From a virus (lineage: Duplodnaviria > Heunggongvirae > Uroviricota > Caudoviricetes), in IMG/VR virus record IMGVR_UViG_3300012943_000028, positions 176,642 to 240,641 of that record: 64,000 bases of DNA. One strand, given 5' to 3'. The translations under genes and the position numbers were made by a program. Under the pieces are notes generated by a model that searched no databases, was not told the origin of the DNA, and saw only the letters and a program-made list of their open reading frames with translations. Positions 1,188 to 51,300 of this stretch are shown piece after piece (the stretch's first letter is position 1; every line of letters starts with the position of its first letter).

Positions 1188-1470
1188 GCTTTGACACCAT
1201 CCCACGGCCAGGGTAGAACAGGCAGTCGGTCCAGTCAATTCCAATCTTGTAGTCGAAGCAGTTCAGCGTGAACGTGCGGCGATCAAGCTCTTCCTTGGTG
1301 ACGTAGCGGAAGATTCCATATCGTTGTCCATCCACACCAAGCGTTGACGACCACACAAAAATACGTGGACCAGCGCCAAGGCTGTACAGCCGGCCTTGCT
1401 CACGTCGAAACGTTTCGTCAAGCGCCTCCTGTGGTGAGCGCTGAAAGATCTTCCAGATCGATTCGCTCAC
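1048..1470 (-). CDS. hypothetical protein; 3' end overlaps the next gene by 140 nt
   Basis: Start overlaps the Rnl1 stop. The C-terminal ~45 aa look like read-through into the next gene's alternate frame. Confidence 0.55.
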   Translation of the reverse strand: MSESIWKIFQRSPQEALDETFRREQGRLYSLGAGPRIFVWSSTLGVDGQRYGIFRYVTKEELDRRTFTLNCFDYKIGIDWTDCLFYPGRGMVSKHDKKSPYDVKTATPRADDPEAQGEARATEGSLPRSRPEEEAFDGVW

Positions 1471-2648
1471 TCAGCCTCCGCTACCGACGGCACGAGGTTC
1501 AGCTGGTGCAACGAGTACAGCTTCAGCATGTGCTTCTCGAAGAACTCGACATAGTTCGGTTCCTTTCCAGAGTAGCGCTGCATCAGCATGCCGAACAGGC
1601 TGCCAGCCTTCTCACGGTACTTGAACACGAACTCCTTGCGGTCCATCTTGTAGTCCTCTTCAGGAGCGATGAGCTTCACAGCACCCTCGAGACCACGGAT
1701 GTCAGACAACACCCGCTGCTCTACCTCGAGCAGAGGGAGGATGTCGATGCCGTCGCCGACCATCAAGGCCTTCAGGTCGTCCAGCTCCTGAGCGATGACC
1801 ATCGCTGCGATGTCGCGTGGGCGCAGGAACGTCATTGCCCTGTGGCGCCGGAGATACCAATCAGTCTTCACCTTGAGCATCTCACCATCGTCAAGCTGAA
1901 CGATCCAACCCTCAATGTTCTCACGGGTCTTTGCGGCATCCATCATTCGCTGGATGTTGAACATGCAGAGGCGCTCTTCACCCCAGTAATCGTAGAACTC
2001 TGTGACTTCATCAACGAGTGGAACACCGAAGTCCTTTGCCAACTCCTCAAGTTCGATGATGTTGAAGTAGCGGCCGCTTACGTTCTCACGAACGTGAAGC
2101 AGGCGCATCTCGGTGTCTGGATAGTACAGCACGATGCGGGCACTAGGTGACGTGTACTCAAAGATAGCCGTGCAGTTCTTGTTGCACAGATACGTGAGCA
2201 GCGCCTGGTATTCACGCTTGTCATACAGCCAATTCAGGGCGGCAGATGCCACGTCAGACTCGAAGGACTTCTTCGACTTGACACGTGCAACCTTCTTGTC
2301 AGGATGACTGTCGTGCGGTACGATCACCGTATGAATCATTGAGCCGTCACGCTTTTCCATCACGCGAGCCACCATACCCCAGTTGATCTCATTTACCTGG
2401 GTTTCGGCACGCTCGTTGAGGTTGAAGAACTTGTGCAGTGGTCGCCCAGCAACTGACCCGTCAGCGGCAAACACAATGCCACGACACTCACGTGACCACG
2501 CATCATCGAACGTGCTGTCACCAGCGATCATGTAGCAGAAGGTCTTCATGCCCTTCATCTGCTGGCCATCACCAGCATTTGCTTCACGAATCTCTTCCTT
2601 GTGAGCAACCTTTGAACGTAGCTCTTCGATGTTTGAGATGTTCAGCAT
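1467..2648 (-). CDS. T4 Rnl1-like RNA ligase
   Basis: KFFNLNE, motif I EKRDGSM, motif III FEYTSP, motif IV/V EGWIVQLDDGEMLKVKTDWY. Confidence 0.88.
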   Translation of the reverse strand: MLNISNIEELRSKVAHKEEIREANAGDGQQMKGMKTFCYMIAGDSTFDDAWSRECRGIVFAADGSVAGRPLHKFFNLNERAETQVNEINWGMVARVMEKRDGSMIHTVIVPHDSHPDKKVARVKSKKSFESDVASAALNWLYDKREYQALLTYLCNKNCTAIFEYTSPSARIVLYYPDTEMRLLHVRENVSGRYFNIIELEELAKDFGVPLVDEVTEFYDYWGEERLCMFNIQRMMDAAKTRENIEGWIVQLDDGEMLKVKTDWYLRRHRAMTFLRPRDIAAMVIAQELDDLKALMVGDGIDILPLLEVEQRVLSDIRGLEGAVKLIAPEEDYKMDRKEFVFKYREKAGSLFGMLMQRYSGKEPNYVEFFEKHMLKLYSLHQLNLVPSVAEAE

Positions 2649-3371: not shown

Positions 3372-3743
3372 TTAGGCTGGTGGAGTTGGCCACACTACCG
3401 TGGTTGGGTCGGTATACGTCTCTGGTAGGTCACGAAGCTCTTGACGGTAGGTCGCATAGTCGGCCTTGAGCTGGGCTGGAATATCAGAGCCCTGAGTCCA
3501 ATCAGATGCGACTAGCTTCTTGTTGCGGATGAAGCGCAGCTTTGTCATCGTCATGACTGGAACAAATGCCCTTGACTTTACGATGCCATCATTCTCATCG
3601 AGGTAGACCTCATCGCCGTTCTGACGGGCGTTGACGAGAGTTTCCCACTCGTTGTCTGTGATTGCAACCACATCCTCAGGCATGGATGGGTGGACCAGCG
3701 TGTGGTAGAACGAAGTTGTTGATGGGCTGAAGAAGTAGCTCAT
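3372..3743 (-). CDS. tail fibre assembly chaperone-like protein
   Basis: MSYFFSPST..FY start; RNxxLxxSDWTQxxD...YRQELRDLP...WPTPP C-terminus; directly downstream of a fibre gene. Confidence 0.85.
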   Translation of the reverse strand: MSYFFSPSTTSFYHTLVHPSMPEDVVAITDNEWETLVNARQNGDEVYLDENDGIVKSRAFVPVMTMTKLRFIRNKKLVASDWTQGSDIPAQLKADYATYRQELRDLPETYTDPTTVVWPTPPA

Positions 3744-3744
3744 G

Positions 3745-5247
3745 TTAGAATCCTACTGCAATCCAGGAGATGCTCTGGTTGCTGTCGACTGCACTGTACA
3801 CTGTAAAGTTGTTGACGGTAGTTAACACAACGGTTGGAGAGTTGTCCTGTGCGTTGTCGCTCTGTGGACCACCATTACACACGCAACGTGAGAACGAAGA
3901 GAACGCTAGTGGGTAGGTAACGACGGTGCTGTCGTTAGAGTTTGCCGTACCAGTACCCCACATGATCTTGAAACCGTTCGTGAACGTGATGTAGCCGGTA
4001 CCGCTGTTGAGCGTGGCTGACACAGCAAGCGGTGCTGAACCGTTTGCGATGCTGGTGATTCTACCGAAGTTGTCAACGTTGAGGTTGACTGGGTTTGCAT
4101 ACGCACCACCGATACCGAAGTTCGGCATTGCGATGCTGATCGTGCCAGTGCTGGTGATTGGACCGCCAGTAACGTTGAGCTGACCAGAAGAGATGTTGAC
4201 TGACGTAACGGGCGTGTTTGCGGCTGCAGAGGTAACACGACCCTTTGCATCAACTATGATCGTTGCATAGCCGTACGTGCCTGGCGTTACGCCTGAGGCG
4301 GCAAGCGTTGCAGCAAATGAACCAGTTCCAGAGCCGGTGACATCACCTGTAAGTGTGATCGTCTGGTCGCCAGTGTTGGTACCTGACGATGAACCCGAGA
4401 TGTTGCTTGCTGTGATCGTGCCAGACAACGAGATCGAAGTTGCGCTAGCGGCTGCAGTGATGCGACCCTTCGAATCGACAGTGATGTTTGCTGCGTTGTA
4501 GGAACCAGCCGTAACACCGCTGTTTGCAAGGGTTGTTGCGAACGTGCCTGTACCACCACCAGTTACGTCACCAGTGAGGATGATAGTCTGGTCACCAGTG
4601 TTGGTGCCAGTGATCGTACCAGAGATGTTGCTGCCTGTGACAGTGCCTGATGCAGCGACAGATGTAGGAGTGATTGCACCCAGACCGATGGTGAGGGCTG
4701 GAGTCGTCGTTGGGTTGAGAACTGAAACCGAAACACCGTTGTTTCCAGTGGCGCCAAATGAAGTTACTGCCGGACCATCAGCCGCCGCAGTGACACGACC
4801 TTGCGCATCTACGGTAATGTTGGCACGAATATACGCACCGGCGGTTACGCCCGTGTTTGGAAGGTTGATCGTGATGTTGCCAGCAGACGTGATTGGAGAA
4901 CCTGAAACGCCAATAGTGCTTGACGTGATGCCAATCGAAGTTACTGTACCACCTGCGCTGTCGACGCCATACCAGAAACCGTCGGCCTTGTAGACCTTGA
5001 GAAGCTCGTTGGCAGAATCGTACCAAATCTGGCCGACAGTTGGGTACGATGGAGAGTCTTGAGAAGCAAAGTTCTCAAGCATGCGAATGAAGTTTTCCTG
5101 CTGGTACTCGCCAAAGCCGTTGACGTTCTTACCAGTCAGAACGAGTGAGGTGGCAGTAGACACGATCGCCTTGTCGGCAACAGTGATCGCTCCCTTGTTC
5201 GGGATGCCTTCGAGGTTGTTACTGGTCCAGTCTACTGTGTATGGCAT
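3745..5247 (-). CDS. virion fibre / tail-associated structural protein
   Basis: N-terminal LxLTGKN..G...QENFIRMLENFA...PTVGQIWYD anchor; repeated GVTAGxYxxANITVDxxGRVTAA units; a duplicated ~65-aa TGDQTIxLTGDVTG block; C-terminal GYITFTNGFKIMWG..YPLAFS tip domain. Confidence 0.8.
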   Translation of the reverse strand: MPYTVDWTSNNLEGIPNKGAITVADKAIVSTATSLVLTGKNVNGFGEYQQENFIRMLENFASQDSPSYPTVGQIWYDSANELLKVYKADGFWYGVDSAGGTVTSIGITSSTIGVSGSPITSAGNITINLPNTGVTAGAYIRANITVDAQGRVTAAADGPAVTSFGATGNNGVSVSVLNPTTTPALTIGLGAITPTSVAASGTVTGSNISGTITGTNTGDQTIILTGDVTGGGTGTFATTLANSGVTAGSYNAANITVDSKGRITAAASATSISLSGTITASNISGSSSGTNTGDQTITLTGDVTGSGTGSFAATLAASGVTPGTYGYATIIVDAKGRVTSAAANTPVTSVNISSGQLNVTGGPITSTGTISIAMPNFGIGGAYANPVNLNVDNFGRITSIANGSAPLAVSATLNSGTGYITFTNGFKIMWGTGTANSNDSTVVTYPLAFSSFSRCVCNGGPQSDNAQDNSPTVVLTTVNNFTVYSAVDSNQSISWIAVGF

Positions 5248-5285
5248 GGCTCGGCTCTATCCGCTAGATGGACTATTTAGTGATT

Positions 5286-6776
5286 CTAGAACACCTTGAC
5301 GCCGTACTTGGCCTGCCATCTGTCTGCGTCCTCAACCGAGTTCACCAGCGGTTCTCCCTTGATGTTGAGGGAGGTGTTGAGGAGGACTGGGCAACCTGTT
5401 CTTTCGTACCACTTCTCAAGGATGGCCCTCAAGATTGGAGATTCCTCGTCCACAGTCTGAACTCTGGCCGAGTTGTCGATGTGGGCAATGGCAGGAAGTT
5501 CCTCAGGCTTGAGCACCTTAACGACGTACTGCATGTATGGGGCAGCCGTCACTGTCTCTGGAAACTGGAAGTAAGTTGTGGCATGCTCCTTGAGAACGGC
5601 TGGAGCAAACGGCCTGAATTTCTGGCGGTGCTTGATCTCGTTAACCTTGTCCTTCATGTCTGCCCTGCGTGGGTCAGCAAGAAGCGAGCGGTTTCCTAGG
5701 GCGCGTGGGCCAAATTCGGCCTTACCGCTTGCGATGCCGCAGATACCAGTCGTGAGCAGCTCGTTAATGACGGCGTCGATATCCAGAGGCCGCTTTATCT
5801 CGTGACCGAGGAATGGTCCCTTCCACTTCAGCTGCTCACCAATATAGAACGCAGCAGCACCAAGAGAGTTGCCGGCGTCGCCAGGATTTGGCATGATCCA
5901 GGTTTTGTCGAACAACTGCGCAACGTATGAGTTAGCGACACAGTTCAGCGCCACACCGCCAGAGTAGACAAGGTTTCGGCTCTTCACCATTGTGGCTGCC
6001 TTGAACATCAGGCGGCCAATGTGTGCTTCGACTATCTTCTGCGCCGCAAGCGCAATTGAGAACCTACCAATTTCTGTGAAGCAAAGACCTTTGAGGGTTG
6101 TGTCATGCCTGACACCCTTATGGAAGTTGAAGCTCTGGTTGATGACGTTCTTGTCGCTCTTGAAGTACGTCGCCACGATGTACTGAACGATGTCTAGCGC
6201 AAGTGTTTCATCACCATACGCAGCCATTCCCATGAGGATGTACTCCTCCTCATTTGGCTTCAACCCAACAAGGTCTGTCATGGCGCTGTAGAACAGGCCA
6301 ATAGAATCCGGGTACTTGAGCTCCCACTTCTTTACTATGGAATCACCACGCCCTTCCCAGATGGAGGCCGTCGTGACCTCGCCTATTGCGTCAATGACAA
6401 GAATTGCTGCATCACTGAAGCCACTAGTGAAGTAACCGCCTGCGGCGTGCGAGCCATGGTGATCTGAGTAGATGACAGAGATGTCTTTACCAAGCCACTC
6501 GCTCAGGTACTTCTTAGGAGACTTTTCAAGGAGCAGCTTGTACTGACCGCTAAGAAGGTAGCGCAGCTTTCTGCCCCACGGGTTTTCAAACCACACGATC
6601 TTGTTAGGGATTCCAAACTGCAGAGCATCTTCAACGAGCTGCCAGTTTAGCTCAGTGTCGTTCTTCGTGCGGCTATACCGCTCAGAGTGACCAGCGAACA
6701 GAATCTCCTTTGACTCTGAATCCACGACAGAGATGGAGGCGTCGTGGTTCATTGCGTTTACGCCCCACACGATCAT
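5286..6776 (-). CDS. carbamoyltransferase, NodU/CmcH/TobZ family
   Basis: NHDAS, HHGSHAA, VIDAIGE and SGGVALNC (Kae1-like); AEFGPRALGNRSLLADPR, RQKFRPFAP and LLNTSLNIKGEP (YrdC-like). Confidence 0.95.
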   Translation of the reverse strand: MIVWGVNAMNHDASISVVDSESKEILFAGHSERYSRTKNDTELNWQLVEDALQFGIPNKIVWFENPWGRKLRYLLSGQYKLLLEKSPKKYLSEWLGKDISVIYSDHHGSHAAGGYFTSGFSDAAILVIDAIGEVTTASIWEGRGDSIVKKWELKYPDSIGLFYSAMTDLVGLKPNEEEYILMGMAAYGDETLALDIVQYIVATYFKSDKNVINQSFNFHKGVRHDTTLKGLCFTEIGRFSIALAAQKIVEAHIGRLMFKAATMVKSRNLVYSGGVALNCVANSYVAQLFDKTWIMPNPGDAGNSLGAAAFYIGEQLKWKGPFLGHEIKRPLDIDAVINELLTTGICGIASGKAEFGPRALGNRSLLADPRRADMKDKVNEIKHRQKFRPFAPAVLKEHATTYFQFPETVTAAPYMQYVVKVLKPEELPAIAHIDNSARVQTVDEESPILRAILEKWYERTGCPVLLNTSLNIKGEPLVNSVEDADRWQAKYGVKVF

Positions 6777-8185
6777 GAAGCGAGCCTCTTGTCCCTGATC
6801 TCCTTGCCGATCTTGTAGGTAGTCTCAAGCTCTGGGAACGTGGCGAGGAAGTTGGTGCTACGACGGCGATCATACTCATCAAAGAACCCCACCATCGCAT
6901 CGAGCTGCTGCGGGTCTGGTGGGACCGAGTTCATGAAGTCCACGAGGCGCGAGATGCGATCTGCTTCCTCAATGGTCATGATGTTGTTGGCATCTGGATC
7001 ACGGTCAGTGCGATGCTTCTTGATGCTTGTTGCCATGCGAGCTGCAAAGCGGCGCTTGCCCTCTTCATCGAGAAGGGTGATGGACATGTGACGCGGCCAA
7101 CGGAGGTAGGCAACGTCGTAGCCAACCCTGCGACGGTGTGGGCGACCACCATACGCGAGGCGCAGCTCACCGATCCAGTCGATGAACCAATCAAACTTTG
7201 GTACGGACAGAATGTTAACAGTCGTCATCACCTGCATGCGCACGGCTGGTGGCGTGTTCTCGAGGAAGTAGTTGATGTTGTCATTGAACAGCTGCCAGTC
7301 AAGACCGAAGCGTGAGTACTCGAGCTGTTCACCTACAGATTCTGCAGACGTGTAGATCACGATCTCTCTGATCTTTCCATGCAGCTGGTTGATCTTGCTG
7401 CACAGCTTTTCGATCAGCTTCTTTGGCACACCCATGTTCGTGTTGATGCCGATCTTGAAGTCAGGGCGTGGGTTCTCAATGACGTAGTCAAGAATCTTCC
7501 ACGTGTTTTCAGACAACAGCGGCTCGCCGCCAGTAATGCGGAACGTGTCGAGAGACTTGTACAGCTCAGGCCACCATTCCCAGAATGCATCGATGTATGG
7601 ATTCTGTTCCTTCCAATGGATTGGGAAGCGGCCTGCCTTCTTCATCCACTCTAGGTCGTGATGAGTACCACCGTCTGGCATCTTGTAGCCGCCGTGCTTC
7701 TCAACCTCTTCCATCCAGCGTGAGCTGACATCAGGTGAGCAGTATGAGCACTTGAAGTTGCAGACATTCTCAAAGGCAACCTCGAGGTAGGCGGGAGCGA
7801 TGCTCTCACCGAGACCTGATGCCAGCACGTCATCGAACTTCTGCCAGATTCCCATGCCCTCGTTTGCAGACTTGTAGTGGCGGTCTGAGAAGTGTTCCTC
7901 AGGAAGGTTCTCGATGTTCCAGCAGTAGTCGCACTCCTTCGTCTGAATACCATTGAGCATGTCATCGCGTGCAGCGAGCTTCGTAGGTGTGTTGTGAAGA
8001 CCGCGTGGGTTTGCCTTGATGTCCTCAACCTTGATCTTGTGGGCCGACGGGTGGTGGCACGAATGTGTGAAGCCGTTGTAGAGCGTCGTGGTAGACTGTA
8101 GCCACTTAGCAAGGCAGAACGAACCGCTGACTGAGTTCAGCTTCGATACGCGTTCCTTCAGGATTTTCAGGTGTTCTTCGTTCAT
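6773..8185 (-). CDS. radical SAM protein with extra Cys motifs
   Basis: CNFKCSYC (CxxxCxxC) and ITGGEPLL; N-terminal FCLAKW..SCHH..CDYCW suggests an auxiliary cluster. Confidence 0.92.
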   Translation of the reverse strand: MNEEHLKILKERVSKLNSVSGSFCLAKWLQSTTTLYNGFTHSCHHPSAHKIKVEDIKANPRGLHNTPTKLAARDDMLNGIQTKECDYCWNIENLPEEHFSDRHYKSANEGMGIWQKFDDVLASGLGESIAPAYLEVAFENVCNFKCSYCSPDVSSRWMEEVEKHGGYKMPDGGTHHDLEWMKKAGRFPIHWKEQNPYIDAFWEWWPELYKSLDTFRITGGEPLLSENTWKILDYVIENPRPDFKIGINTNMGVPKKLIEKLCSKINQLHGKIREIVIYTSAESVGEQLEYSRFGLDWQLFNDNINYFLENTPPAVRMQVMTTVNILSVPKFDWFIDWIGELRLAYGGRPHRRRVGYDVAYLRWPRHMSITLLDEEGKRRFAARMATSIKKHRTDRDPDANNIMTIEEADRISRLVDFMNSVPPDPQQLDAMVGFFDEYDRRRSTNFLATFPELETTYKIGKEIRDKRLAS

Positions 8186-9150
8186 TTGTCAGCCTCGATC
8201 TCAGTCACAATCGGATTGTGCGTGCGCTTTGGTGCCTCATACACTTCTTTGAAGAACGCCGACTGCTGTGCGTTCATGTCAGCTATCTTCAGTCCGAGGT
8301 TCTTGTAGAGAGTGTCAAGCAGCTTGGTGCTTTCTGCTTGGAGAACCTTTTCATCCCATATGAGACCAGTACGGCGACACTTCTGAGAGCCGTCACCGAC
8401 AAAGCGCTGCGCAACGGCAGGACCATTGAAGTACTGCTTGAACCAGTCGTAGTCGGAGATCAGTGAGATGTCAAAGTTCTTGTCGATGTTTGCGGCAAAG
8501 ATGCCGAGGCGGGTGCCGTAGATCGACCAAAGACCATTCTCAACGTCCGCACCAACAGACGCCCAAATCAGAAGGCGCTTGAAGTTCTTTTCATGTAGGT
8601 GCTTTGCAATGACACCATCACCTGCCGCCTTACCACGGTCAAGCGTCATCTTGACACCCTCACGAAAGCCAGCTCTAAATGCCTGGAACGGTGAGCCGTT
8701 CGGACAGGTATCTGAGTAGAGGTTGTTAAGCTGAATGTACTTGTCGTCCCAGCAGAAGTCCACCTTCTCAGCATCCGAACTCGCATTTTCATGCGTGCGC
8801 ATGCCGAGAACGAATGACTTAGTCCACAGCTTGAGACCACCATTGCCGTAGCATAGGCCATTGATGACGTTGCGCCCAGCCCAGCTGAGCGAGCAATCCC
8901 TGAAGCGATCAGGAATGTCTAGCTCGAGATCAAAGAAGTGTGGGTAGACGATATTATCGCCATCGACCGTGATAAAGCGCTCTGTCTCAGAGGCCATGGC
9001 ACAGGCCTTATGTGCGCTGTCAAAGCCCTTGACACCATCAACACGTTTGGCCCATGGAGCTAGCTCTAGAAGCTTGCCCCAAAATTCTTCTTTCTGTGGT
9101 TCATCGTACGAGAGATAGAAGATGTCGAACTCAGTAATTGCTTGCTTCAT
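8182..9150 (-). CDS. putative GT-A fold glycosyltransferase
   Basis: FYLSYDEP, VDGVKGFDSAHKACA, DxD-like TVDGDN, YGNGGLKLW. Start placed at MKQAITE. Confidence 0.62.
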   Translation of the reverse strand: MKQAITEFDIFYLSYDEPQKEEFWGKLLELAPWAKRVDGVKGFDSAHKACAMASETERFITVDGDNIVYPHFFDLELDIPDRFRDCSLSWAGRNVINGLCYGNGGLKLWTKSFVLGMRTHENASSDAEKVDFCWDDKYIQLNNLYSDTCPNGSPFQAFRAGFREGVKMTLDRGKAAGDGVIAKHLHEKNFKRLLIWASVGADVENGLWSIYGTRLGIFAANIDKNFDISLISDYDWFKQYFNGPAVAQRFVGDGSQKCRRTGLIWDEKVLQAESTKLLDTLYKNLGLKIADMNAQQSAFFKEVYEAPKRTHNPIVTEIEADK

Positions 9151-9814
9151 GTCTTTTGATAGCCATCTTGATGCCTGATCTGATCGAGTAGACCGAGATG
9201 TCATGCGCGTTGTTGAGGTTCAACACGATTGGATTTGGCCATTCAGCTAGGTTGTTTTGGCCAGCGATCTCGCTCAGCGTATTTACGTCAAGCGTGAACG
9301 CACATTTCAGGTGACCTGGGTCCCCCTCAGCCGTGAAATACAGTTTTGCAGGTCGAGACCAGTTTGGAACGGTGGCCCCATTGTAGTGGATCAGAACTGC
9401 GTCGTCTACTGCGCCGACTTCGATTACGATGTCTGGATACGCAAGCTTGTCAGCTGGAGTCGTGATCTCGAAAACCTGCAGGTCATTGACACGCTCAGCC
9501 TTCTCACGCTGGAATTCCACCTCGTGCATGATGCCATACTTGTCATCACGCAGCACGACAACCCAACGCGTGACGTTTTCGACTCCAAGCAAGAACTTTT
9601 CTGCGAGGTCGTAGTCAATCTCAACGCTGATCACGTCAGCGTTTGCAGTATCAGCGAGCTGCTGCGGAGAGATTGCGACGATGGTCTGCTGCTTCTTGTC
9701 GATGTGAACGTAGAACTGTGGTTTGGCAGGTGCGGTAACCTCTATCACCATTGTCGTCGGCACCTCTTCATCAAGAAGCTTCGCAAGGGCTTCCTCATGT
9801 GCAGCGATGCTCAT
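9131..9814 (-). CDS. hypothetical protein within the modification operon
   Basis: ATGA-coupled to the upstream gene; no recognisable motif. Confidence 0.75.
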   Translation of the reverse strand: MSIAAHEEALAKLLDEEVPTTMVIEVTAPAKPQFYVHIDKKQQTIVAISPQQLADTANADVISVEIDYDLAEKFLLGVENVTRWVVVLRDDKYGIMHEVEFQREKAERVNDLQVFEITTPADKLAYPDIVIEVGAVDDAVLIHYNGATVPNWSRPAKLYFTAEGDPGHLKCAFTLDVNTLSEIAGQNNLAEWPNPIVLNLNNAHDISVYSIRSGIKMAIKRHEASNY

Positions 9815-10665
9815 ACGCCCACCTTCTTCTCCATGAACTCGATCATGCGATCGCTCACAAAGTCTTTAATGTGGTAGTGAAGTGGTAGATACTGACGGTA
9901 GTTTCCAATCTTGATCTCACAATCACGGTTGAAGTGAGATGGAATCATCTTCGTCCAGTCTTCGATCATGTACTTGTCGTTAGGCCAATCCTGCAGCTGG
10001 CTCTTCATGTGCACGAACGTTGGCATGTCTACATGCGGCAGCTTGTTGTATGAGCCATAGTCCATGATCTTGGATGCAATGGCAAACACCACGTCAGTGG
10101 ACACGTAGCGAGGGCGGTGGTCTGGCAGAAGGAACTCGTAGTAGCAGCGTTCCCAGTTGTTGAAGATGAACTCAGCGAGCTTGAACAGCTCGAAGTTTAC
10201 GTCATTCTTCTTGAAGTAGAACATGGCAGTGTAGACGTTCGGCAGCCCACTTTCCGTGAAGGTCTTCCTGTAGAAGTCGCTTGTAACCTTGTCACCACGG
10301 TACGTGAAGGCGTTGGTTGCAAATACGCCATCGCTCTGTGAGAGATAGTCCCACCAGGCGCTGATGTTTGACGGGAAAAGCATGTCAGCGTCAAGCTTGA
10401 TTGTCTCATCGTACGGCGTCATGTAGATGGACTTCCACTCGTTCTCAAGCTTCCACGTGGAATCCTTTGCAGCATCTTCCCATGGAATTGTGATTACGTT
10501 GTCGAACACTGCTCTGTATTTCGGGTTGAGCTGCTCTCCAGCTGCAATACCGATTGACAGCTTCGATAGCTCTTCAGGCTGAGACAGCTTCAAAGAGAGG
10601 GCGAGAGCATAGGCAAGACGATGGTACATCTCGCCCTGTGCGAGCGTGAAGAACCCACGGCTCAC
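9811..10665 (-). CDS. putative glycosyltransferase (GT8/mannosyltransferase-like, DxD)
   Basis: TPYDETIKLDADMLF, DVVFAIA and late HMK/HYH motifs; paralog of the next gene. Confidence 0.7.
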   Translation of the reverse strand: MSRGFFTLAQGEMYHRLAYALALSLKLSQPEELSKLSIGIAAGEQLNPKYRAVFDNVITIPWEDAAKDSTWKLENEWKSIYMTPYDETIKLDADMLFPSNISAWWDYLSQSDGVFATNAFTYRGDKVTSDFYRKTFTESGLPNVYTAMFYFKKNDVNFELFKLAEFIFNNWERCYYEFLLPDHRPRYVSTDVVFAIASKIMDYGSYNKLPHVDMPTFVHMKSQLQDWPNDKYMIEDWTKMIPSHFNRDCEIKIGNYRQYLPLHYHIKDFVSDRMIEFMEKKVGV

Positions 10666-11546
10666 TTCAGCGTCTCCATGATGTCCGTCATGTTGTTGAG
10701 CAGCGAGACCTTGTTCATGCAGTGAACGTTAAGATCACGTGTACGAGAGACGAAGAACTTCCAGTTGTCCTTCTGGTCGTTGGCAAAGAAGTACATGTCA
10801 GTTGGGCTCTTGATGCTGAAGAATTGGTCGGTGTCGAGAGCGGTGAGCAGCACTGGATCAGGGAGAGGTGCAACGAAGTCGCCTTCAATGAAGGCGTTGA
10901 GGATGTGGATGGCGATCGAGAACGCGTAGTCATTGCGGTACAGGTGGCCCGGAACGTCGTACGTTAGGCGATAGAAGTCCCAGTTTTCCTTGATGTGCTC
11001 GATGAGCTTGAAGAGCAGCGCTGCCTTCTTTCCCTTCTTGAAGTAGACGACAGTCGCCCAGTACATCTTTATGCCGAATGGGTTCAGCCGAAACTCTGGG
11101 CCAGTGAATGGCTCATGGAATAGGTTTGTTGCGGCGCTGTTGATCATGATCTCTTGATCACTACCCCAACAGCAGTTGAGAATTGGGTTGGCGATCAGGT
11201 AGTCACAGTCAATGAGAAGCGTTTCATCGTACGGTGAAAGATCATAGATGAGAGAGCGTGACTCATTCTTGAAGGTGTCTTCGAAATGGTAGTAGCGCGT
11301 GTCCTTGTAGGTGCGCCGATTTTTGAAGAGCTGCTTGTCAGTTTCTATTAGGCTGAAGCTGGTGAAGACATTTTCTATTTCCCAGCAACCCTTTTTATCC
11401 TGCCACGCCTTGCTGCCTGCATCGGTTATCAGGTGGATGTCGGTTTCGGGCATGTTCTTTCTGATGAACGACGCGCACATCACTGCCAGCTGGACGTAGT
11501 CCACCTTCTCGTTGTTGACGCCATAGATCACCACGCCGCGAGACAT
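10662..11546 (-). CDS. putative glycosyltransferase (GT8/mannosyltransferase-like, DxD)
   Basis: SPYDETLLIDCDYL and RNDYAFSIA; both paralogs start MSRG. Confidence 0.7.
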   Translation of the reverse strand: MSRGVVIYGVNNEKVDYVQLAVMCASFIRKNMPETDIHLITDAGSKAWQDKKGCWEIENVFTSFSLIETDKQLFKNRRTYKDTRYYHFEDTFKNESRSLIYDLSPYDETLLIDCDYLIANPILNCCWGSDQEIMINSAATNLFHEPFTGPEFRLNPFGIKMYWATVVYFKKGKKAALLFKLIEHIKENWDFYRLTYDVPGHLYRNDYAFSIAIHILNAFIEGDFVAPLPDPVLLTALDTDQFFSIKSPTDMYFFANDQKDNWKFFVSRTRDLNVHCMNKVSLLNNMTDIMETLK

Positions 11547-11548
11547 GC

Positions 11549-11929
11549 TTAGACTCCAACGGCTGACTTGGCGTTGCGGGCCTTGTTGATGCCCTTCACT
11601 TCAGTCAGGTACTCGTTCATGCACTCATAGTACGTGTCTGAAATGTTGTCTAGAAAGTCCTCGAGGTTTTCGATCTCGATTGGGCTTTCATTGACATCAA
11701 GCAGAATGGTTTCCTTGCGCCCGCGCGCAAGTAGAGATGACACAAAGGAGATGAGCTCTGGCGTTACACGGAACGTGCCGCCATTGATCGAGAACGTAAG
11801 GTTCTTTTGAAGCTTGAGACGAGCGTTCTGCTTTTGGATGTTGAGCGTGGTGCGGTAGTTCGCCGCAGCAAGGGCTTCTTCGAGGCGCTTATCAATAGCG
11901 ACCTGAAGGTCTGGATTACCCTTTGTCAT
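11549..11929 (-). CDS. conserved phage hypothetical protein, first gene of the operon
   Basis: Helical ORF with INGGTFRVTPELISFV; follows a TAAATA box. Confidence 0.75.
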   Translation of the reverse strand: MTKGNPDLQVAIDKRLEEALAAANYRTTLNIQKQNARLKLQKNLTFSINGGTFRVTPELISFVSSLLARGRKETILLDVNESPIEIENLEDFLDNISDTYYECMNEYLTEVKGINKARNAKSAVGV

Positions 11930-11988
11930 TTGATCTGATTCCTTATGATGGGGAGCGTAAGCTCCCCATATTTATCAGGTCAGACCAA

Positions 11989-13461
11989 TCATGGAGCCGT
12001 GATGAATGTACCGCTCTGAGCCACTGCTGGCAGTGGGATCGATGGGAGGTTCGTGTTCAACGAGTTCACCGAGTATGCGGTGATGTTTGAAGAAAGCGTA
12101 CCATCGAGCGTCACATCGACTGGCTCGCCAGTGATGTTCTGCAGGTAGTACTCGATCTTGATCGTCACGACGTAGTTCACACCAGTTACTGCTGACATGG
12201 TGACAATGATACCACCATCAGTTGGCGGGTCCGATGAGTAGAGACCGCCGCCGGGAGTATCGAGCACGCTGCGCTCGAACACCTTAAGGTCTGAGCCGCT
12301 GTCGAGAACGTGGTAGTAGCCACGAGTGTACTCACCAGGAATGTATGGCTCGTAGAAGTCGTCAAGCTCTGTGCCGAAGTAGTCGAAGTTGAGACCAGTA
12401 AATGCAAGCAGGAAGTTCTTCCAGTCAAGCTCAACGTCAGTCTCTGAACCGATGTTGCTTGGCGTGAATGACCAGTTGAACTGAAGCTTGCCGCCAGCAT
12501 TGAAGAACGCCTGCGCCTTTGCCTTGCTGAGGAAGGTGAGCTGCACCTGGTGAACGTACGTGCCAACTGCTGATGGAACACCGAGCGACTGGCCCGGCGT
12601 TGTACGCGCCGCCGTGGCAAGCGAGTTGATCTGCGTTGACGTAGGAGCAAGTTCGAAACGAGCAGTGTCGAGGTTGTTGAGCGCAAGCTTCGTTGCGATC
12701 ATGTACGTGGTGACGGCCGTGATGCCAACTCCGTTCCAACCATCAGTAATGTTTGCGATGGTGCCCTGATATGGTAGTGGACCAGTGTTGATGTTGTTGT
12801 AGTAGTTTGCAAGCGTGTTGCCTGGTGCCAACGGACGGCCATCGAAGATGAATCCGACTGGTGAAGTCAGCGCTTCATCATGTCCGACCTGGCGCATTGC
12901 CTTACGAAGGCGTGAGATAAGAATTGCCCAGCTCGAGTTCGTGAAGACCGGTGGGAACGTCTGACCAGGTGGCAGCGCACCCTCTGCTGAGAGCGATGCT
13001 GCGTCGAGAGTGCCGTTTGCGTTGTACGTAGGTACGAGGTCTGTCTGACCCCAGCCGTACGCCTCAGTCGTGTCGCTGCCAGAATAGACAGGAGAACCGA
13101 CGATGCTGTTGAGCAGCGTGGCCATTGGCATGTAGTCGGCGAGGCCGCCAACTGGAATTGGAGTTGGCGATGACTGGTCCCAGCCGTTGTAGAACGGGCC
13201 TGCACCAGTGTAGAGGTACATGATGCGCTCAGTTGAGTGGTACCAGTTCTGACCCGTTGTTGGGTTCGATGGTGGCTGAGTGCGTGCAAAGTTCTCAAGC
13301 AGGCGGATGAAGTTTTCCTGCTGGAAGAGACCATAGTTGTTGAGGCCCTTGCCTGTGAGTGTGACTGACGTTGATGAAAGATCAGACGTCTTGTCAGCGA
13401 TCGTGATAGATGACTTACCACCTGGATCGCCAGTGCTGGCCCAGTTTACGATGTAGCTCAT
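11989..13461 (-). CDS. virion structural protein (fibre/baseplate-associated)
   Basis: N-terminal TLTGKGLNNYGLFQQENFIRLLENFA..PTTGQNWY is paralogous to 3745..5247; TAAATA upstream. Confidence 0.7.
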   Translation of the reverse strand: MSYIVNWASTGDPGGKSSITIADKTSDLSSTSVTLTGKGLNNYGLFQQENFIRLLENFARTQPPSNPTTGQNWYHSTERIMYLYTGAGPFYNGWDQSSPTPIPVGGLADYMPMATLLNSIVGSPVYSGSDTTEAYGWGQTDLVPTYNANGTLDAASLSAEGALPPGQTFPPVFTNSSWAILISRLRKAMRQVGHDEALTSPVGFIFDGRPLAPGNTLANYYNNINTGPLPYQGTIANITDGWNGVGITAVTTYMIATKLALNNLDTARFELAPTSTQINSLATAARTTPGQSLGVPSAVGTYVHQVQLTFLSKAKAQAFFNAGGKLQFNWSFTPSNIGSETDVELDWKNFLLAFTGLNFDYFGTELDDFYEPYIPGEYTRGYYHVLDSGSDLKVFERSVLDTPGGGLYSSDPPTDGGIIVTMSAVTGVNYVVTIKIEYYLQNITGEPVDVTLDGTLSSNITAYSVNSLNTNLPSIPLPAVAQSGTFITAP

Positions 13462-13549
13462 GTTGTCTCCGAGTTGCGCCGGCTCAGCAGTGCAGGCCCT
13501 GCCGGTTTAGTACGGGCGTGCACCTGTATTTATCCTACGGAGCAAAGTA

Positions 13550-13644: not shown

Positions 13645-14388
13645 CTAGACAGACCCCTTTGGAGAGTCCGGAGAGTCGAGCAACGTTAGAATTGTCTTCA
13701 CGATCTCAGAACGGACCACGTCCTGGTTTTCGAATGCAATGTAGTTGATCTGCGAGTCCCTCCCTGTAAGTTTGCGGATAGCGTACTGAAGCCCATTTTC
13801 CCACACGCCGGTGTGGTCTCTCGGCTTCTTGAGATCGGATTGAGTAACATCACCGTTGATCGAGAACGTGCTGCCGTGACCGATGCGGGTCAGGAACATT
13901 CTCATCTGTTCGATGGTGGTATTCTGTGCTTCGTCAAGGATGACGAACGCATTGTTGAAGGTTCGGCCACGCATATAAGCCAGCGGGGCGATCTCGATCT
14001 TCTGATCCTCGAGCAGCATCTTTGCCTTCATTGGGCCAACATGGTCCTGAAGAGCATCAAAGAGCGGGAGGAGATATGGATCGAGCTTTTCCTCAAGCGT
14101 TCCAGGTAGGAAGCCGAGGTCTTCACCTGCCTGAACAACAGGGCGCGTAACGACAATGCGATTGACTTCGCGTGAAAGCAGTTTTTCGAGAGCTACTGCG
14201 GTGACGAGGAACGTTTTACCGGCACCTGCAGGGCCACCGCAGATGGTAAGAGTCGCATTTCTCAGGGACTCGAGATAGAGCTCTTGTCCGTAGTTTCTGG
14301 CTTTGATAGGCTGTTTGATGTGTACTGGCTTACCTTCATGCTCGACGGCAGCATTAGGTGGGTATTTCTGCTTCTTGCGCTTAGGCAT
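13645..14388 (-). CDS. phoH: PhoH-family ATPase
   Basis: GPAGAGKT, IVVTRPVV, LGFLPGTLEEK, LAYMRGRTF, ILDEAQN, FLTRIG, GDVTQSD. Confidence 0.96.
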   Translation of the reverse strand: MPKRKKQKYPPNAAVEHEGKPVHIKQPIKARNYGQELYLESLRNATLTICGGPAGAGKTFLVTAVALEKLLSREVNRIVVTRPVVQAGEDLGFLPGTLEEKLDPYLLPLFDALQDHVGPMKAKMLLEDQKIEIAPLAYMRGRTFNNAFVILDEAQNTTIEQMRMFLTRIGHGSTFSINGDVTQSDLKKPRDHTGVWENGLQYAIRKLTGRDSQINYIAFENQDVVRSEIVKTILTLLDSPDSPKGSV

Positions 14389-16145: not shown

Positions 16146-16790
16146 TCATGTCCATAGGTATTCTCTGATAGCGATGACGCGTTGAAGCATCTTCTCGCAC
16201 ATCAGCTTATGTTCTTCTTCTATCTGATGAAGCTCATCCCATGTGATAAGCTTTTCCTTACCATTAGGAACCTTGGTCAACTTACCATCAACAAAGTCGT
16301 AGCGCTCTCCAGTCTTCTCGTACAGGTCGAAACGGTCGAGATCGTACTTTTCATCCTTGTACCATTCGTAGAGGTTGAAAATCTCGATGTTCTTGTTGTA
16401 GTAGATGTTGGCCGATTTTTCGAGATCGCACAGCTCGTCAACGCTCATGCCCTCGTATGGAGGCTTTAGCAGCTCGAGGCGGGACTGCTCAATAAACTGC
16501 GCCATTGCAGCACGGTCAGTGTAGCGCTTCCCCCACCACTTCGTCTCCCAATCCTTGAACGGCTGCTCAAGCTCGACGAAATCGACGAGAATCTGGAAGA
16601 CGGCGTGGTACATGATTGCATCACGGTCAGACCATGATCTTGGGAGCGCATGAACTGTGACGACATTGTGAGGCTTGAAGAAGCAGCGAATGTCATAGAT
16701 GACAGAGCGCAGCCAGCTGCGCTTCGAGCGTACCCACAAGCTCAGCAACTTGGTGAGATTCTTCTTTGCCTTTGGCTCGTTCACGTTCAC
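16146..16790 (-). CDS. hypothetical protein
   Basis: 214-aa ORF preceded by tandem early-type and late-type promoter boxes. Confidence 0.7.
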   Translation of the reverse strand: MNVNEPKAKKNLTKLLSLWVRSKRSWLRSVIYDIRCFFKPHNVVTVHALPRSWSDRDAIMYHAVFQILVDFVELEQPFKDWETKWWGKRYTDRAAMAQFIEQSRLELLKPPYEGMSVDELCDLEKSANIYYNKNIEIFNLYEWYKDEKYDLDRFDLYEKTGERYDFVDGKLTKVPNGKEKLITWDELHQIEEEHKLMCEKMLQRVIAIREYLWT

Positions 16791-31469: not shown

Positions 31470-31542
31470 GCGGCTCCTTAGAGCTCTTTCTTATGTGATG
31501 TTCTATTTACGTCTGCAGGTTGACGTTCGGTTGTGATCGGCT

Positions 31543-48300: not shown

Positions 48301-51300
48301 TTGGAGATGAAGCAGCTCGAGACCGGCTGGCCGCCATCCATCTCCACCTCGACCTCCACCTGGAAGCCGTCGATGCGCTTGCTTGCACTGCTCATTTCGA
48401 GACCTCTTTTGCTGCCTTGTTGATGCCACGGTATTCCACGAACTTGAGGTAGCCTGGAGTCAGCTCGTTGGCGTACCACGTTCCAGTCTTCACAGCGACG
48501 ATCCCACCGTCACGGGCAACGTAGACCTCGTCACCGACCTTGAGGTGGAACTGCCGTGCAAACTTCTTGAACGGGCGGACCAGGCGGAAGATGGGCACGA
48601 TCACCGGCGTGCAGTTGACGACGGTGTTGAAGTCGGACTTACGCACGGCGGCGATCTCCTGCTTTGCGCTGCGGCGGGAATTCGGTGGTTGACAAGCTCA
48701 GGCACCTGCCCACGATCACGCACAGCGGGAAGCTGATGGCGAGGTAGGCTGCCGCAGCGAGCAGGTACTTGGTGGGGGTGATGTAGAGCAGGAAGGCGAG
48801 CACGATCAGGATCGCCGCACGTTCCAGGTTCCAGAGCAGGTTCTTCATGGCGTTCTCCAGTAGTTGCTGTCACGCCGATCGTTGTCGGCAACGGCGCACG
48901 AGACGTGCGCAAGCTCGATGTACTTGAGGCTGCCGTCCAGCTCGTACACGTGGTGATCCGCCACCTGGCCGTAGTCGACGTCGATGGTGGCGTCGGCCTT
49001 CACGACCTCAGGGAGAGGAAAGGTGCAGAGTGAGCAGTTGCAGACGTTCATAGTACCTCCGGAGGACCATCATATCACAGGTCCACGGAAAGTACAATTC
49101 AGCCCATTATGTAAAATGGGCTACCCGAACGGGATTTCAGTGTCTGGGTCTGGGCGTAGGTCTGGAACGTCATTGATGATGAGCAGCCGACCAGGATAGC
49201 GAATTGCAACCTTGCTGTCGTCAAGGTAGATGCGCCCATCTTCTATTCTAGTAACTGTGGCGAACTCAAGGTTTGTAGCTCGACCCGAGGCGACAGCACG
49301 GACGATTCGATCTCCTACAAAGAATGGCCGACCGTATGCATCTCGTAGCTCGGTCGCCATCCATGTTCCATAGCTGCGGCTCATACGTGGTGGAGCTTAG
49401 GAAGCGTCCACGGTCTCCTGCTCTTCTGGAGGAGCGGAGAGCTTGTTGAGGCGGAAGGCCTCTTGAAGGGCGGCGTGCCCGTTGATGTCGCTCGCCCGTA
49501 CGAACTCCATTCGGTAGCCGTTCGGGTAGTGTTCGAGGAAGGTCTTGTGGCGGTCGGCTCGAGTGCCGGCATGGACACCGAGATCGCCGAGGACGTATCC
49601 TTCATGCGAGCACCAGTGCGAGCCGAGGACGGTTCCGTCGGCGGCCATCGCATAGGCGATGCCATCTCCACCACCCCGCATTCCAGAGAACGCATAGATG
49701 GCCGGAAGGTCCATGACGTCGACCTCGTTGTTCGGAGCGTAGTAGGCCCAGCGGTTGCCCTCGTAGAGGGACCTTAGCTCTTCAGCGGTCAGCGGCTCGT
49801 ACATCGTGATCTCCTACTTGAAAGGTTCGAGGTGTTCTTCAACGATCTCGCGCATGTACCTGCGGAGGGTGGCGCGTGTCTTGTCAGACAGCTTGATCTT
49901 CAGGTGCGTCAGCTTGGCGTCGAAGTCCTTGTCGATGCCATCAACGATGACCTCGATCTCATCGTTCGTCAGGCTGACGATGCGGATGATGTCAGCCACC
50001 CTTGTACACCTTCATGACGGTACGGGAGAAGTCGTTTGCGTGAAGGGCCTTCTTTGCGTCCTTCTTTTTGAGCTCTACGTCGATGGCGAGCTCGGCTGCC
50101 TCGGCTGACTTGTACTCGAAGGTCATGTATGAACGGCCACTGCAGCCTGACTCCCAGTAGCTGAGCGTGTCCCAGTACGGCACCAGGAACCAGCGCTTCA
50201 CCTCACCCTTGAAGTAGTGGTCATTGCCACTCCTCACCTCGACAACCCTGCCCCTTGGGCCAAGCATGCGCAGCTGGGCGACTGCGAAGAGCAGGAGGAC
50301 GATGGTGAACGGGTTGAAGATTGCCAGCATCAGTCTCTCCAGGAGTTCTCGTAGGCCTCACGTTCCTTACGAGTCATCTGCCGCTTCTTGCAACCCTGCA
50401 CGAGGCCGCGCGCCGTCCAGGCTGGACCACGCATGAGGAAGCAGACGAGGTGAACAACGAGCATGAACGGCCACATGGCGATGAACATGCCACGGTCAAC
50501 GGTCTCCCATGGACCGCTCGCACCTGGCATTGCGCACATGCCGTTGCACTCGAAGAGAGCCGCAAGGGCGATGCCAACAACGAAGTAGGCCATGATGCAG
50601 AGGATGATGAGAGCAAAGGTTGGCATCAGAAGAACTCCTTCTCGACACGCTTCACAGTGTGGAGCGGGTAGACAACAACGGTGCGGTTGATGATGTCCGC
50701 AGGATTGTGCGTGGCACCACCAGCCTTGGCGATACCCTTATTGACCGTAAAGCCGAAGGCGTCCTGGTCCGTCATGATGCTCGAGTGCGGGTACTGCGCC
50801 TCATGAACATCAGCCGTACCATTGACGAGGTGAACGGTGATGCGGATATTGTGCGTCATGGCGTTGAGGTGATCCTTGAGGACTCGAGAGCATACTCTTC
50901 TGTCGGCGCCTGCGGCTCGACGTAGCCGGTGTCGTTCGAGTCGGTGAACTTGTGCTTGCCGCCGACCACCGCCGAGACTGAGCTTGACAGCTGGCACTTC
51001 GTGAAGTAGCGGTAGCGACCATCGTCCAGGAAGCGGTAGACCGTGCAGCCGTCGATGTCGAACAGCTTTTCGACCTTGAACTCGCCGATCGGCGTAGTCG
51101 GTCCAGTTGGCGCCTTAGCGCACGCCGTAAGGAAGAGGATGGCGCCGATCGCCACTGCGACGGCAAGCTTGAGAGCGATGCTCTTCTTTGAGGGAGGTGT
51201 GCCCTCACCGTGCCTGTGCCCACAGCCGCAACCGTCTTCTTCACGCATGGTAATCTCCTGGATTGAGTGAGGTCATTATAACCTGTCAGGTATCTGACGG

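Follow-up and report, generated by a model that had tools for sequence, protein, structure and literature searches.

A fibre-associated operon of glycosyltransferase, radical SAM and carbamoyltransferase genes in a T4-like phage: a candidate pathway for virion-fibre glycosylation

The IMG/VR record IMGVR_UViG_3300012943_000028 is a complete phage genome of 358,444 bp with direct terminal repeats and a GC content of 54%. It belongs to a T4-like phage and includes a gp23-type capsid gene as well as a portal gene of the T4 type. We have analysed a stretch of 64,000 nucleotides (bases 176,642-240,641; 'the window') in which seven tightly coupled open reading frames (ORFs) occupy positions 5286-11929 of the minus strand, flanked by the fibre-like genes g11989 and g3745. 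This operon is a minimal form of a phage module that is widespread and unstudied. We consider that there is about an even chance that the module glycosylates and tailors a protein made by the phage, the adjacent fibres being the likeliest target, in a chaperone-coupled glycosylation of the virion. The genes concerned are listed below in the order of transcription (window coordinates).

g11989, 11989-13461, minus strand: fibre-like structural protein upstream of the operon, 490 aa; phrog_14394 and phrog_15511; Ser+Thr 19.6%
g11549, 11549-11929, minus strand: 126 aa; predicted DUF4376-fold, tail-fibre-chaperone-like protein and predicted partner of g10662
g10662, 10662-11546, minus strand: 294 aa; GT8-like glycosyltransferase of the GT-A fold
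g9811, 9811-10665, minus strand: 284 aa, GTG start; GT8-like paralog of g10662
g9131, 9131-9814, minus strand: 227 aa, acidic; conserved, fast-evolving protein in the fourth cassette slot
g8182, 8182-9150, minus strand: 322 aa from Met19; GT2-like glycosyltransferase of the GT-A fold with a helical C-terminal domain
g6773, 6773-8185, minus strand: 470 aa; radical SAM protein, NCBIfam NF033640
g5286, 5286-6776, minus strand: 496 aa; O-carbamoyltransferase of the NodU/TobZ/NovN type
g3745, 3745-5247, minus strand: downstream tail fibre with a Gp53-like C-terminus, 500 aa; PF21882 and phrog_38058; Ser+Thr 26.4%
g3372, 3372-3743, minus strand: tail-fibre assembly chaperone of g3745, 123 aa; PF16778 (Phage_tail_APC, E 2.8e-17) and several PHROG tail-fibre-assembly families

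Layout and products of the operon

A preliminary description of this DNA had proposed seven coupled genes, and all seven ORFs are found on the minus strand as listed. The gap between g11549 and g10662 is 2 nt (11549/11546), and 4-nt overlaps occur at 10662/10665, 9811/9814, 8182/8185 and 6773/6776. The longest ORF of g8182 begins at 9204 and would overlap g9131 by 74 nt. Gene calls in relatives and the family alignment point to Met19 at 9150 as the probable start, which leaves an overlap of 20 nt. g11549 starts 59 nt after g11989, and the same arrangement is seen in relatives. The seven proteins are soluble, with no transmembrane segment in any of them, and all are net acidic. No match to the operon was obtained by megablast against the phage collection.

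The two flanking genes had been thought to share an N-terminal domain, and the proteins g3745 and g11989 are indeed 47% identical over 93 aa (E 5e-20). The fibre proteins had also been described as very rich in Ser and Thr: not five but six large fibre-like proteins of the window have a Ser+Thr content of 20-27%, compared with a mean of 13%. Separately, two small minus-strand ORFs, which we regard as candidate genes, show extreme values (16466-16696, 76 aa, 41%; 50810-51244, 144 aa, 32%).

The first gene of the operon, g11549, is predicted to encode a DUF4376-fold, tail-fibre-chaperone-like protein, matched in two independent models. In the Atlas comparison it obtained a feature score of 0.91 and structural template-modelling (TM) scores of 0.57-0.63 with the DUF4376/Caudo_TAP clusters. 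Its AlphaFold2 (AF2) model (predicted local distance difference test, pLDDT, 86.8) comprises a long helix and then a small alpha/beta domain, and matches BFVD DUF4376 proteins with E-values down to 4.6e-4 (probability 1.00), while a Foldseek search of the PDB with this model gave nothing below E 0.2. The DUF4376 domain is found in the tail-fibre chaperones gp27 of Alteromonas phage V22 and gp9 of A5, which are encoded right after fibre genes, and V22 gp27 is experimentally required as a tail-fibre chaperone (PMC7289586, PMC10579305). Like these, g11549 is a small protein encoded directly after a fibre-like gene, and a DUF4376 fold is predicted for it. It differs from them in size (126 aa compared with 195-239 aa), in having no sequence-level DUF4376 match, and in being translationally coupled to a glycosyltransferase (GT) that is its predicted binding partner; its chaperone role is a prediction.

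Complex prediction supports the binding of g11549 to g10662. The median ipSAE of three runs was 0.81 (best control 0.00), with at least 87% of the contacts common to the runs and a partner pLDDT of at least 82. Of 80 solved complexes 58 reach the mark applied to ipSAE, as do 2 of 110 mismatched pairs (approximate counts, obtained with our own alignments). In the predicted interface, helix residues ~5-45 of g11549 face residues ~120-144 and 223-272 of g10662. We are not aware of any solved complex of such a type. In the three relatives with clear starts (L017, L025 and L052), the gene for the DUF4376-like protein overlaps the first GT gene by 8 nt. A chaperone-fold protein that docks a GT would be the most economical reason why the cassette always starts with a g11549-like gene and always follows fibre genes.

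Three GTs had been proposed from DxD motifs. All three are indeed GT-A enzymes at the level of fold or profile, and none of the DxD proteins modelled as another fold, though searches of Pfam and NCBIfam with g10662, g9811, g8182, g9131 and g11549 gave no hit even at lenient E-values. For g10662, the Atlas model matches the GT8 (PF01501) cluster with TM 0.67/0.62. The DxD motif (D113/D115), H275 and K279 are invariant in 14 sequences, N278 also being listed, and the protein is 39% identical to ORF353 of the Ralstonia jumbo phage RsoM2USA. The g9811 family is paralogous to that of g10662 (hhalign probability 99.7%, E 3.5e-26), and its GT8-like assignment is made at the profile level through g10662, not from its own structure model. 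In g9811 (phrog_1903; 51% identical to RsoM2USA ORF352) D94 of the LDADM motif, H219 and K221 are invariant, and the first Asp of the motif varies between D and E. Since the curated Pfam GT8 model (PF01501) gave no hit to g10662 or g9811 even at E 10, we describe the two as having a GT8-like fold and do not claim membership of CAZy GT8.

The AF2 model of g8182 (pLDDT 91, predicted TM score 0.90) has a GT-A core and a helical C-terminal domain, and both D63 and D65 of its VDGDN motif are invariant. The best PDB match obtained with Foldseek is the capsid GT A64R of PBCV-1 (2p6w, E 3.6e-4), followed by RmlT, TarP, B4GalT7 and SunS. The A64R match is weak (TM 0.27/0.37) and concerns only the N-terminal GT-A core. 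Foldseek matches in AFDB and Swiss-Prot are GT2 enzymes; named GT2 proteins are matched with low TM scores (0.3-0.5), and the C-terminal half is specific to the family. The protein has more than 7999 homologs, in Atlas clusters that are 95-100% viral. Sequence searches of the PDB with g10662, g8182 and g6773 gave nothing useful. By fold or profile, g10662, g9811 and g8182 are GT-A enzymes with a predicted activity in sugar transfer.

A conserved paralog of g8182 (~30% identity) lies at G000:C1:174562-175221, ~1.4 kb before the start of the window and near a short gp23-like ORF (C1:175870-175998). In eight relatives (L006, L007, L009, L011, L012, L017, L030 and L035) such a paralog is found at a fixed distance, ~10 kb downstream of the cassette.

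No family match was obtained for g9131 in Pfam, PHROG or NCBIfam. A hidden Markov model (HMM) built from its close homologs finds the fourth-slot proteins of L028, L025, L042 and L035 (E 1e-5 to 5e-4). These are mutually related, and those of L025 and L052 are related to RsoM2USA ORF351. By sequence comparison, g9131 is a conserved, fast-evolving member of the cassette.

The two remaining products had been called a radical SAM enzyme and a carbamoyltransferase, and both calls hold at the family level. g6773 belongs over its full length to NCBIfam NF033640 (N_Twi_rSAM, twitch domain-containing radical SAM protein), scoring 319 bits against a cut-off of 170 over model positions 3-397. The CX3CX2C motif, read from the translation, is CNFKCSYC at ~142-149. 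N-terminal auxiliary cysteines (24, 43, 85 and 88, in CLAKW, SCHH and CDYCW contexts) are predicted to bind a cluster. This is the sole NF033640 copy in the genome; arrays of up to 7-19 are present in relatives and in Bdellovibrionota. To our knowledge, no reaction has been characterised for this family.

g5286 scores above the cut-offs of both carbamoyltransferase domains (PF02543, 128 bits; PF16861, 176 bits), belongs to phrog_1601 and matches NovN (5e-55), GdmN and TobZ in the PDB. Its HHxxH, DAG and EFGPRALGNRS motifs align with those of NovN. With its catalytic motifs present, it is by sequence an intact O-carbamoyltransferase of the NodU/TobZ/NovN type. It shares with TobZ, NodU, NovN and GdmN the two-domain architecture (Kae1-like and YrdC-like) and the metal-binding and carbamoyl-phosphate motifs, and differs in its shorter N-terminus (496 aa compared with 570-690 aa).

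A conserved gene order behind fibre genes

The only cultured relative that carries the operon is RsoM2USA (343 kb). Its genes run ORF355 (fibre-like), 354, 353, 352, 351, 350 and 349 (radical SAM), ORF355 being the homolog of g11989 in the equivalent position, and the block lies beside genes for the sheath, the baseplate and virion proteins (PMC8504454). A second locus of this phage (115485-133038) contains, in this order, a radical SAM paralog (ORF202, 37% identical), two further genes and the carbamoyltransferase gene ORF199. A second, divergent gene of the thymidylate synthase (TS) family is also present in RsoM2USA, at 7739-8398 (85 bits).

A synteny survey, which the preliminary description had suggested, was made with 80 IMG/VR loci fetched with the radical SAM protein. 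About 30 of these uncultured phage loci keep the cassette order behind fibre-like genes, at 25-50% protein identity and over a GC range of 32-54%. The conserved order is: fibre-like genes, a DUF4376-like gene, two GT8-like genes, a g9131-like gene, a GT2-like gene and then one to seven radical SAM paralogs, sometimes followed by a carbamoyltransferase gene and then by PhoH. Genes of cyanophage P-RSM4 that lie between a 'fiber' gene and a carbamoyltransferase gene were considered as cassette relatives and rejected, being not detectably related in HMM searches.

No partner recurs with the carbamoyltransferase as tightly as the N-twitch radical SAM enzyme does, and this association extends to bacteria. 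Three Bdellovibrionota metagenome-assembled genomes (G021 to G023) carry 11, 8 and 19 copies of NF033640, respectively, often clustered, which lie beside a carbamoyltransferase and a GT1 gene or beside a GT2 gene. At one locus of the first of these genomes (L109), a copy lies near a carbamoyltransferase gene, a GT1 gene and a gene for an 822-aa protein with a pilin-type N-methylation motif.

A comparable island is the host recognition cluster (HRC) of pelagimyophages and cyanomyophages (PMC7029224). It likewise lies in the structural region of T4-like phages and contains tail fibres, GT8-type GTs and radical SAM cassettes. However, the HRC is described only as a variable, nonsyntenic region, no conserved gene order is reported, and its GTs are read as modifiers of the host O-chain. 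Here there is a fixed six-gene core (DUF4376-fold, two GT8-like, g9131-like, GT2-like and N-twitch radical SAM), which is also found in freshwater and soil jumbo phages and in RsoM2USA. In the literature that we searched, the module is known only as content of this descriptively defined cluster; the conserved six-gene core is new.

Promoter-type elements and neighbouring genes

The box TAAATA, noticed earlier at 11969-11974, is present within GATAAATA. It forms part of an ATAAATA box (11969-11975, minus strand) located 43 nt before the ATG of g11549. The window contains five ATAAATA sites, all on the minus (coding) strand, compared with 0.83 expected, and 13 TAAATA sites compared with 3.7 expected; neither count was matched in any of 100 shuffles. 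Genome-wide, ATAAATA is found 57 times, in most cases 20-70 nt ahead of an ATG that has a Shine-Dalgarno sequence. Because it is enriched, strand-specific and placed before gene starts, ATAAATA is, on these sequence criteria, a real promoter-type element. A T4-type late promoter has a TATAAATA-like -10 element and no -35 element, and is used late with gp55 and gp33.

TAAATA boxes occur at the equivalent position in L006, L007, L009, L011, L012, L017, L041 and RsoM2USA. ATAAATA also precedes the fibre-like genes that start at 13461 (g11989; box at 13527-13533) and 24712, and a fibre paralog at C1:251660. A further site (C1:105722) lies just after the portal gene, with a gene start ~70 nt downstream. 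In the 38-nt spacer before g3745 there is a CTAAATA (5274-5279, minus strand), and g3745 may have a promoter of its own in addition to read-through from the operon. A TAAATA at 9280-9285 (minus strand), which lies inside g9131 with the candidate g8182 starts 76-130 nt downstream, is either an internal promoter or a chance occurrence.

The 7-bp stem GGGGAGC-TTAC-GCTCCCC recognised earlier is also real. Its core lies at 11950-11967 and can be extended to 9 bp at 11948-11969 (minus strand; -16.8 kcal/mol); it has no U-tract. Hairpins occupy the same position in L007, L011, L012, L041 and RsoM2USA with unrelated stem sequences, which argues that the structure is under selection. It may belong to the operon transcript, as a 5' stem-loop, or to that of g11989, as a 3' structure. 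The idea that hairpins generally follow ATAAATA boxes was rejected (mean minimum free energy -5.9 compared with -6.7 for random windows): the hairpin is confined to this site and its orthologous positions.

Other genes nearby include g13645 (13645-14388, minus strand), a PhoH-family ATPase, to judge from a 96%-identical gene of relative L086 that carries PF02562. Marine loci have a PhoH homolog after the radical SAM array and the carbamoyltransferase gene, and PhoH stays near the module in varying arrangements. g1467 (1467-2648, minus strand) probably encodes an RNA ligase of the T4 Rnl1 type; its 59%-identical L086 homolog carries PF09511. In a close relative, a second RNA ligase gene (PF09414) lies slightly further along.

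The likely target and the alternatives

If the fibres are the target, g11549 would act as an intermolecular fibre chaperone and dock the first GT8-like transferase, g10662. This enzyme, its paralog g9811 and the GT2-like g8182 would build a short glycan on the Ser/Thr-rich fibre from host nucleoside diphosphate sugars. The N-twitch radical SAM enzyme g6773 would modify the sugar by radical chemistry, and g5286 would O-carbamoylate a hydroxyl using carbamoyl phosphate and ATP. A sugar nucleotidyltransferase (PF00483) was not found in the phage genome, so that a donor-sugar pathway could not be tied to the operon. More specifically, and quite tentatively, we suggest that the chaperone-fold protein recruits the GT to the nascent fibre, making folding and glycosylation one coupled step that is followed by radical SAM editing and O-carbamoylation, and that thousands of uncultured T4-like jumbo phages, as well as RsoM2USA, have this scheme in common.

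Cytoplasmic GT-A enzymes that decorate structural proteins independently of host machinery have been described for mycobacteriophages (Freeman et al. 2023) and for giant viruses (PBCV-1 A64R, Mimivirus R699). In mycobacteriophages the reported targets are the capsid and the tail tube (Freeman et al. 2023, as cited in PMC12619734). As far as these accounts go, such systems do not include a radical SAM enzyme, a carbamoyltransferase or a chaperone-like partner, unlike the operon described here.

A carbamoylated glycan on virion fibres had already been suggested in the preliminary description. Its gene content stands, and its link with the fibres is now stronger: the cassette follows fibre genes across distant phages, and its chaperone-fold first gene product is predicted to bind a GT. 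Several observations nevertheless weigh against glycosylation of the fibres. Accessory genes accumulate in the fibre-adjacent islands of T4-like phages, which serve as dumping grounds (PMC7029224), and position by itself is therefore weak evidence. Pfam found no DUF4376 domain in any of 14 g11549 family members, which leaves that assignment to structure. Compositions rich in Ser, Thr and Gly are normal for fibres. The cassette does not always include the carbamoyltransferase gene, which lies elsewhere in RsoM2USA, is absent from the 91%-complete G005, and is missing from the stretches fetched for L011 and L012. We infer the target (fibres), the product (a carbamoylated glycan), the order of the steps and the time of expression.

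As regards timing, late expression had been advanced from the TAAATA box as an argument for virion modification. This is a resemblance in sequence, and the argument does not hold: the box also precedes tRNA genes and, as had been conceded, thyA (31504-31509). In the marine low-GC relatives L025, L028 and L035, a perfect sigma-70-type promoter (TTGACA-N17-TATACT) is found ~60-30 nt before the g11549 homolog and replaces both box and hairpin. In T4-like phages such a promoter would suggest early expression, and the cassette may be expressed early in these three relatives.

Two further points against the fibres as target concern DNA. The genome encodes a dCMP hydroxymethylase like T4 gp42 (G000:C1:285091-285675; L004:1537-2280, minus strand), with E 1e-72 to PDB 1b49, so that the phage likely has 5-hydroxymethylcytosine (5hmC) in its DNA. 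A phage NodU-type carbamoyltransferase is known to act on 5hmC in DNA, RNA and dCTP (Yang et al. 2021, PMC8670742). The operon could accordingly glycosylate and/or carbamoylate the hydroxymethyl group made from cytosine, giving 5-carbamoyloxymethylcytosine or glycosyl-hmC and evading nucleases. Phage DNA glycosyltransferases with a GT-A fold also exist (bioRxiv 10.1101/2023.12.21.572611), and a divergent TS-family gene is found in the close relatives G002, G003 and G015 (in G003 a hydroxymethylase, confirmed by protein search, 74% identical).

We nevertheless think hypermodification of DNA very improbable. The cassette occurs without a hydroxymethylase in G010 (357,559 bp, 100% complete), which has carbamoyltransferase homologs and only a canonical thyA, and in G005 (318 kb), which has no TS-family gene. 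In G011, too, a carbamoyltransferase is accompanied only by thyA. These genomes establish that the cassette is independent of the 5hmC pathway. The enzyme of Yang et al. is of the same NodU/TobZ family as g5286, but 5hmC carbamoyltransferases adjoin a TS homolog, and carbamoyltransferases on unmodified contigs are flanked by GTs (PMC8670742). The residues W408, G421 and R423 are named as discriminating the 5hmC enzymes. By contrast, g5286 lies ~100 kb from the hydroxymethylase gene, within a GT and radical SAM operon, and has relatives in genomes that encode no hydroxymethylase. Also against DNA are the recurrence of the radical SAM, carbamoyltransferase and GT association in Bdellovibrionota, the lack of any JGT-like protein among the AFDB and Swiss-Prot Foldseek matches of g8182, and the net acidic character of all the operon proteins. 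The preliminary description had likewise preferred a target other than DNA, on the ground that thyA was the only TS-family gene. This is true of the window only and fails for the genome, while the conclusion itself stands through the hydroxymethylase-free relatives and the bacterial association.

The main rival is remodelling of the host envelope, in which the operon would alter the lipopolysaccharide (LPS) core, the O-chain or another surface glycan, blocking superinfection or keeping progeny from adhering to debris. Both GT8 and GT2 are families typical of LPS and polysaccharides, cytoplasmic GTs of the LPS core are also soluble or peripheral, and the sigma-70-type promoters of the marine relatives fit early expression. 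This is also the published reading of the HRC (PMC7029224): GT8 genes and radical SAM cassettes are described there in the midst of tail-fibre genes, and modification of the O-chain is argued for. However, the six-gene order is kept over 32-54% GC and presumably in varied hosts, including Ralstonia, whereas a set of genes acting on host glycans should track host glycan diversity. The operon contains no flippase, polyprenol-phosphate GT or membrane protein. Envelope remodelling also leaves unexplained both the coupling of the cassette to a protein with a fibre-chaperone fold and the predicted g11549-g10662 complex. We regard it as distinctly unlikely.

The module might instead make another phage product: a tailored sugar on a small phage peptide, on another virion protein (capsid or sheath), or in an aminoglycoside-like free small molecule. 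The combination of GT, twitch radical SAM and TobZ-like enzyme follows an aminoglycoside-like logic. Peptides or cyclitols are frequent substrates of enzymes of the twitch/SPASM class (PMC11002830). With five to nine radical SAM paralogs and further enzymes, the larger versions of the module resemble a multi-step tailoring line. BtrN is a radical SAM example of action on cyclitols. Against this, the compact operon with its 4-nt overlaps leaves no room for an extra small ORF, and the conserved position after fibre genes and the chaperone-fold first gene point to fibres. We judge a product of this kind unlikely.

Should glycosylation of the fibres prove correct, the fibres of a large and environmentally abundant group of T4-like phages would be glycoproteins made by a phage-encoded pathway, and their glycan would bear on the interpretation of host range, receptor binding, the stability of virions and recognition by immune or defence systems. 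The compact seven-gene version described here, together with its homolog in the cultivable RsoM2USA, offers the simplest test system. The module would also provide a first biological context for the radical SAM proteins of NF033640, a family that has expanded in predatory bacteria to 8-19 copies.

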